Source: Escherichia coli (GTDB lineage Bacteria; Pseudomonadota; Gammaproteobacteria; Enterobacterales; Enterobacteriaceae). Taken from it: a stretch of 64,000 bases of DNA. A model generated the notes under the pieces. It did not search any database, was not told where the DNA came from, and worked only from the letters and a program-made list of their open reading frames with translations. This document shows, piece by piece, positions 51,790-52,077 of the stretch; the stretch's first letter is position 1, and each line of letters opens with the position of its first letter. Location of the stretch: assembly GCF_022846255.1 (NCBI RefSeq), contig NZ_AP025682.1. One strand, given 5' to 3'. The translations under genes were made by a program, and so were the position numbers.

Positions 51790-52077
51790 ATTTCCTGCAT
51801 TTCTTTTGTAGGCCGGATAAGGCATTCACGCCGCATCCGGCGCTGTTTGCCTGATGCGACGCTTGCGCGTCTTATCAGGCCTACGGTTTCTGCATTTCTT
51901 TTGTAGGCCGGATAAGGCGTTCACGCCGCATCCGGCACTGGTTGCCTGATGCGACGCTTGTGCGTCTTATCAGGCCTACGGTTTCTGCATTTCTTTTGTA
52001 GGCCGGATAAGGCGTTCACGCCGCATCCGGCACTGGTTGCCTGATGCGACGCTTGCGCGTCTTATCAGGCCTACGGT
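51790..52077. repeat. Three tandem 95 bp BIME units (each a pair of inverted REP palindromes) between sucA and sdhB
   Basis: Unit ttctgcatttcttttgtaggccggataaggcgttcacgccgcatccggcactggttgcctgatgcgacgcttgcgcgtcttatcaggcctacggt repeated three times with a few substitutions, period 95 bp. Confidence 0.85.

Follow-up and report, generated by a model that had tools for sequence, protein, structure and literature searches.

The sdhB-sucA locus and its tandem array

The locus described here lies within a 64,000-nucleotide stretch of Escherichia coli DNA (contig NZ_AP025682.1; hereafter the window), in which sdhA (52810-54588), sdhB (52078-52794), sucA (48820-51621, start codon at 51619-51621) and sucB (47588-48805) are all encoded on the minus strand. 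The spacer separating sdhB from sucA is 456 bp in length (51622-52077), and it begins, directly after the sdhB stop codon (TAA, 52078-52080), with a tandem array on the same strand (51793-52077) that comprises three head-to-tail 95-bp units with 96% matches and 0 indels. With the base that follows the stop codon taken as the start, unit 1 occupies 52077-51983, unit 2 51982-51888 and unit 3 51887-51793; the pairwise differences between units amount to 1, 4 and 5 substitutions, with no indels and a total of five variable positions. Tandem Repeats Finder (TRF) reported a single array at 51795-52086 (period 95, 3.1 copies, 96% matches, 0% indels, score 542), and a direct-repeat search recovered three copies in register, at spacings of 95 and 95 bp and with 93-95% identity to the reference copy.

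A first-pass annotation, made from the sequence alone, had placed a BIME array of three nearly identical 95-bp copies between the sdhB stop codon and the region upstream of sucA, at 51790-52077. A tandem BIME array was indeed identified there, its copy number and period are borne out by TRF, the direct-repeat search and the unit sequences alike, and the proposed limits are right to within 3 bases when units are counted from the stop codon. The same annotation described the array as filling the spacer, which overstates its extent: it covers 285 of the 456 bases (62%), and the 171 bp that remain outside it carry conserved leader structure.

The last two bases of the sdhB stop codon are in register with the repeat, and the final bases of the gene (AATGCGTAAACC, 52078-52091) agree with the inter-unit spacer (AATGCAGAAACC) at 10 of 12 positions. 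It is this resemblance between the 3′ end of sdhB and the spacer that accounts for the extension of the TRF array to 3.1 copies; it may reflect either the duplication history or chance.

A second tandem repeat with a period of about 95 bp was not found in the 64-kb window, whose remaining tandem repeats are a cluster of tRNA genes and repeats of short period around 37 kb and 48.3 kb. The cluster (32979-33679, minus strand) holds seven tRNA genes, five identical to one another and two of another type, and forms a 205-bp tandem repeat; from its position we take it to be the Lys/Val cluster. A full-length match to the CpoB/ybgF RNA thermometer (Rfam RF02782, 153.7 bits) follows at 34606-34744 on the minus strand. 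At 37014-37478 lie overlapping short-period repeats of 15-78 bp, rich in GCTGC and TTT, whose position is consistent with a repetitive, Ala/Lys-rich coding region such as that of tolA.

Unit architecture and family assignment

Read on the transcribed strand, each unit consists of ACC, a 36-nt Z2 REP (GTAGGCCTGATAAGACGCGCAAGCGTCGCATCAGGC), a 7-nt linker, an inverted 34-nt Y REP (GCCGGATGCGGCGTGAACGCCTTATCCGGCCTAC) and an A-rich tail, which together with the ACC of the next unit makes up an 18-nt inter-unit spacer (AAAAGAAATGCAGAAACC; 51980-51997, with a second copy at 51885-51902). The six REPs run in the order Z2, Y, Z2, Y, Z2, Y and alternate in orientation, in agreement with the two inverted REPs per unit noted at first pass. 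In unit 1, the Z2 REP (52039-52074) opens with GTAG on the mRNA strand and starts only 3 nt past the stop codon (TAA, ACC, then GTAGG), and the Y REP (51998-52031) is inverted relative to it and ends in CTAC. The corresponding REPs of unit 2 lie at 51944-51979, with one G-to-A change in the hairpin loop, and at 51903-51936. Those of unit 3 lie at 51849-51884 and at 51808-51841, the latter carrying a C-to-T change that leaves a G-U pair on the mRNA strand only. The S-type linker between Z2 and Y reads AACCAGT (52032-52038 in unit 1) and becomes AAACAGC in unit 3. A REP pattern search located the three Z2 copies, where none was expected from 100 shuffles of the window.

Two classes of element built from REPs come into question. 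BIME-1 elements combine z1 with y, occur as single copies and have a long L linker, often with a site for IHF, whereas BIME-2 elements combine z2 with y through a short S linker and form tandem copies whose number varies between strains (Ton-Hoang et al., PMC3333891). The sdhB-sucA array is a BIME-2, as every feature of the class that could be assessed here is present: alternating, opposed Y and Z2 REPs, a short S linker, tandem units, GTAG and CTAC at the feet of the palindromes, an intergenic position and a strain-variable copy number (Gilson/Bachellier definition, via PMC3333891). It departs from the class in no essential respect. BIME-2 units are described as flanked by s, l or r motifs; in the array an 18-nt spacer is present, composed of the flanks of the locus itself.

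BIME-1, RIB and RIP elements share with the array their REP building blocks and their location at the 3′ ends of genes, but they consist of Y and Z1 with a long L linker bearing an IHF site, in single copy, and the array has none of these attributes: it contains no Z1 REP, its linker is 7 nt long and it has three copies. IHF binding is a property of the BIME-1 L linker (PMC3333891), and the IHF consensus WATCAANNNNTTR, with up to one mismatch, has no match in 51622-52077, the nearest lying inside sdhB at 52099-52111. An element working through IHF would have some appeal, since the suc promoter of K-12 is under IHF repression (Cunningham & Guest 1998, cited in PMC10197701); with no Z1 REP, no L linker and no consensus match, and with BIME-1 elements being single copies (PMC3333891), a BIME-1 or RIB/RIP reading is barely credible and was rejected. 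The IHF binding attributed to the array at first pass falls with it, and of the two proteins then proposed to bind, gyrase alone plausibly applies.

RNA structure of the spacer and the sucA leader

The spacer is predicted to fold at -206 kcal/mol, with a z-score of -11.5 against shuffled sequences. A single unit can form either one hairpin of about 30 bp, in which Z2 pairs with Y (-48.9 kcal/mol), or two local REP hairpins (-44.3 kcal/mol).

The 171 bp beyond the array contain stem-loops that are conserved across genera. Just downstream of the repeat, and outside it, an inverted repeat at 51751-51789 (minus strand) folds into the stem-loop CTTTAAAAACTG...CAGTTTTTAAAG. The stem recurs in E. coli, E. 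albertii, Salmonella, Citrobacter, Pseudenterobacter and Phytobacter, and the loop that it encloses is 15 nt long in E. coli but exceeds 100 nt in S. diarizonae, Citrobacter and Phytobacter. The stem may close a larger leader domain, and it may be a site for RNase III. A further hairpin at 51715-51742 reads GCGGAC...GTCCGC in the window, where it matches E. albertii and Salmonella; the Citrobacter version is GCGGGC...GCTCGC and that of K-12 GCGAGC...GCTCGC. At two base pairs both partners have changed, which is consistent with selection on the RNA structure of the sucA leader. At an E-value of up to 1, Rfam returned only naRNA4 and a chance match to isrG, with no leader motif of sucA type.

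Allelic variation in E. coli and its relatives

The copy number of the array had been expected to vary between strains, and a comparison of 5,426 complete E. coli genomes upholds this, with alleles of no unit, a K-12-type cluster, and two, three or four units. Genomes were assigned with junction-specific queries and with BLAST E-value cut-offs that, on the assumption of near-identical units, only alignments spanning n units and both flanks can pass. On this basis, 1,761 genomes (32.5%) have no REP at the site and carry instead a small hairpin (GCCGGGG-AAAT-CCCCCGGC), 2,262 (41.7%) have the K-12 form, in which Z2-S-Y is followed by a Z1 REP, and 1,377 (25.4%) contain at least one unit-unit junction and hence two or more units; about 26 genomes fall outside these three classes. 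Three or more units were found in 334 genomes (6.2%), four or more in 128 (2.4%) and five or more in 0 of 5,426. It follows that about 1,043 genomes (19.2%) have two units, about 206 (3.8%; 334 minus 128) three, and 128 (2.4%) four, the last including CFT073, Nissle 1917, ABU 83972, ATCC 25922 and LF82. One genome had the junction at four places, yet no five-unit array was detected in the collection, and strain DETEC-P881 matched the BIME-2 junction and the K-12-type junction each in part, a pattern suggestive of a hybrid allele.

The K-12 cluster occupies the same site within a 300-bp spacer, and its first unit likewise begins 3 nt past the stop codon. Its Z2-S-Y is identical to unit 1 of the window over the REPs and the linker, but a single Z2-Y pair is followed by the Z1 REP at the point where the window repeats its units. 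The sucA-proximal leader is common to both, except for hairpins hp2 and hp3, which differ in sequence.

Since tandem repeats are prone to mis-assembly, the three units of the window could in principle be a two- or four-unit array that was expanded or collapsed. Several observations make this most improbable, and it was rejected: some 206 complete genomes have exactly three units, strain A20 is identical over the array and its flanks (365 of 365 nt, 100%), the 456-bp spacer recurs in strain A37, the substitutions that distinguish the units occur in an order that matches other genomes, and the array, at 285 bp, is shorter than most read pairs.

Beyond E. coli, the type strain of E. albertii carries a four-unit array at this site, and its units have in common substitutions that are specific to the species. 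The exact 32-nt inter-unit junction is absent from 100,044 species-representative genomes; the E. albertii array differs from this query by one base in the spacer. Among loci from other genera, where sucA was located in 9 of 120, the small GC hairpin of the REP-free allele was also seen in Salmonella enterica subsp. arizonae and diarizonae and in Citrobacter sedlakii. In the REP-free allele, S. arizonae and C. sedlakii it sits after the stop codon, at exactly the position of the BIME. As the hairpin is common to Salmonella, Citrobacter and REP-free E. coli, it is most likely ancestral, and the BIME probably replaced it.

Another spacer of the operon was also compared. Between sucB and sucC (47495-47587), the window has 93 bp with one small REP-like hairpin (GTAGACCGAC...GTCGGTCTAC), a form also present in CFT073 and strain A37. 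The K-12 spacer is 274 bp long and has four REPs (BIME-2) inserted inside that hairpin. Taken with the sdhB-sucA comparison, this indicates that lineages differ at both of the operon's BIME-2 sites.

Over 40000-64000, no complete E. coli genome exceeds 99.1% identity to the window, and mismatches are patchy, ranging from 0 to 34 per kb, as expected for a recombinant mosaic; the strain of the window is therefore absent from the 5,426 complete RefSeq genomes. Downstream of sucD, the window has an open reading frame of 371 aa (44104-45219). In strain A37, the closest genome, the gene that holds the corresponding place in the sucD-cydA interval carries the annotation tetratricopeptide repeat protein; K-12 has different genes there.

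Origin by local duplication

The inter-unit spacer carries a signature of how the array may have arisen. Its 18 nt are made up of 13 nt of the downstream flank, as found after the last Y REP (AAAAGAAATGCAG), and 5 nt of the upstream flank (AAACC), the latter being the AA of the sdhB stop codon followed by the ACC that precedes the first Z2 REP. A spacer composed of the two flanks of the array points to local, head-to-tail tandem duplication of a 95-bp segment, as opposed to repeated insertion of a mobile unit. The junction occurs at 1,835 places in the 1,377 genomes that contain it, against 1,839 expected from array sizes alone, and is therefore essentially confined to the sdhB-sucA locus. In both E. 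coli and E. albertii the most divergent unit is the one proximal to sucA, as would be expected if inner units turn over.

Comparison with REP325

The closest counterpart of the array is REP325, which lies in the yjdM-yjdN spacer of K-12 and is likewise a BIME-2 tandem between two co-transcribed genes. Its Z2 core (GGCC...CAGGC, 33 nt) is identical to that of the array and its Y REP differs by 1 nt. REP325 differs in having a period of 100 bp rather than 95, 5.8 units rather than three, an S linker of 13 nt rather than 7, and a different spacer. It also presents Y first on the transcript, whereas the array presents Z2 first.

This last difference is reflected in matches to the Rfam model of naRNA4 (RF02564), for which the Y-Z2 units of REP325 were the basis and which serves as an independent check on the family assignment. 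On the plus strand the units of the array score 88.4, 86.8 and 79.6 bits, above the gathering score of 59.5, and the mRNA strand of the array reaches 47-54 bits, below threshold. In the window, as in K-12, CFT073 and E. albertii, the naRNA4 hits at sdhB-sucA run antisense to the operon; those at REP325 lie on the gene strand. By sequence, the array and REP325 are thus one and the same DNA element, turned around here relative to transcription. A scan of 51400-52300 found no promoter-like site on either strand, and a simple scan of the same interval found no intrinsic terminator in the spacer, so that neither an antisense transcript nor an intrinsic terminator gains support.

Probable function of the array

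The reading we favour, with a probability of roughly 0.6, is that the array is a BIME-2, expanded by local duplication within the sdhCDAB-sucABCD transcription unit, that acts mainly as RNA. Once transcribed, each unit would fold into two REP hairpins or into the single Z2:Y hairpin of about 30 bp. The array would then serve as a decay barrier protecting the sdhCDAB mRNA and as a partial attenuator damping read-through into sucABCD, and the number of units would provide a heritable dial for the ratio of sdh to suc expression, with more units exerting a stronger effect. The Y REPs of BIME-2 elements are cleaved by gyrase (PMC6379681), and those of the array are probably gyrase cleavage sites too, as a parallel property at the level of DNA.

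Several observations make such tuning of read-through, first suggested by the first-pass annotation, plausible. The array lies between co-oriented genes, with both sdhB and sucA on the minus strand, which is the placement expected of an attenuator or stabiliser, and in K-12 co-transcription of sdh and suc from Psdh is established (PMC9731577, PMC5371410, PMC4161252). The K-12 sdhCDAB-sucABCD operon has an internal partial terminator and a secondary promoter (PMC4161252), and three RNase III sites are placed in the sdhB-sucA spacer by Cunningham & Guest 1998, as cited in PMC9731577 and PMC5371410. Coordinate conversion places an RNA-seq peak (K-12 coordinate 758515) within the REP cluster of K-12. 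REPs less than 16 nt from a stop codon are reported to lower translation (Liang et al. 2015, via PMC12306157), and the first REP of the array, at 3 nt, lies within the distance that Liang, Rudd & Deutscher 2015 are described as giving (PMC12306157). The best-studied BIME-2 is REP325, with six units between two co-transcribed genes; it cuts downstream expression 8-10 fold, stabilises the upstream mRNA and leaves a ladder of hairpin-ended transcripts, with a partial dependence on Rho (bioRxiv 10.64898/2026.03.23.713779). The inverted orientation of the array with respect to transcription is a real difference that counts against this analogy, and the authors of the REP325 work describe REP effects as context-dependent and not uniform genome-wide (bioRxiv 10.64898/2026.03.23.713779). 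In the REP-free allele and in relatives a stem-loop also follows sdhB directly, which suggests the BIME as a functional replacement; the array itself is dispensable, given that a third of genomes have no REP and 42% have a different cluster at the site.

The main and serious rival to the RNA dial is neutral or selfish expansion, in which the array would be a by-product of REP/BIME dynamics, driven by unequal recombination, slippage or the activity of TnpA-REP, and its copy number would drift with no meaningful effect on sdh or suc. This is a distinct, if lesser, possibility. It would account readily for a site as polymorphic as this one, with 0, K-12-type, 2, 3 or 4 units, for the commonness of REP-free strains (32.5%), and for the gain or loss of a second BIME-2 in the same operon, in a sucB-sucC spacer that measures 274 bp in K-12 but 93 bp in the window and CFT073; BIME-2 copy number is generally strain-variable, and TnpA-REP recombines BIMEs in vitro (PMC3333891). 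It sits less easily with the fact that a hairpin of one kind or another directly follows the sdhB stop codon in the alleles, as it does in Salmonella, Citrobacter and Pseudenterobacter, which suggests that a stem-loop matters here, or with the large effects on neighbouring genes measured for REP325 as a comparable BIME-2, and the lack of any genome with more than four units in the census may mean a selected upper limit. A primary role in the DNA itself, as a strong gyrase site, as a cruciform or topological insulator that separates two blocks of heavy transcription, or as a nucleoid contact through HU and naRNA4, appears rather unlikely. Gyrase cleavage is over-represented in BIME-2 elements, mostly at Y REPs and independently of transcription, and the sucB-sucC BIME-2 of K-12 is a gyrase hot spot (PMC6379681), although gyrase binding at the array would not exclude a role as RNA. 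The units exceed the Rfam threshold for naRNA4, which together with HU has been reported to bridge REP cruciforms and condense the nucleoid (PMC4550694). That claim is disputed by a re-examination in 2026, in which REP325/naRNA4 had no effect on nucleoid volume and Hi-C revealed no REP-REP contacts (bioRxiv 10.64898/2026.03.23.713779), and at sdhB-sucA the naRNA4-like strand is antisense to the operon, with no promoter-like site found for it.

Conclusions

REP and BIME sequences have been known in the sdhB-sucA spacer since the 1980s, and copy-number variation of BIME-2 elements is textbook knowledge. The type of the array, its presence at this site and its polymorphism are thus real but not new, and the three-unit allele is already present in some 200 public complete genomes. 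What is added here is the census, the probable ancestral hairpin, the signature of local duplication and an array common to E. coli and E. albertii.

Alleles of three and four units occur in ST73-type uropathogens and their relatives, such as CFT073, Nissle 1917 and ABU 83972, and a succinyl-CoA-limited quiescent, antibiotic-tolerant state has been described for CFT073 and not for K-12 (PMC10197701). It is conceivable, though improbable, that the alleles set the sdh:suc ratio of each lineage; if so, three or four units would restrict read-through into sucAB and contribute to the quiescence and tolerance of ST73 uropathogens.

On its own the array is of little importance, but the natural series of alleles that it belongs to, running from 0 to 4 units together with an apparently ancestral hairpin, in an operon of central metabolism, is a useful by-product, one with which the influence of BIME copy number on attenuation and mRNA stability could be tested directly; the recent work on REP325 has reopened that question.
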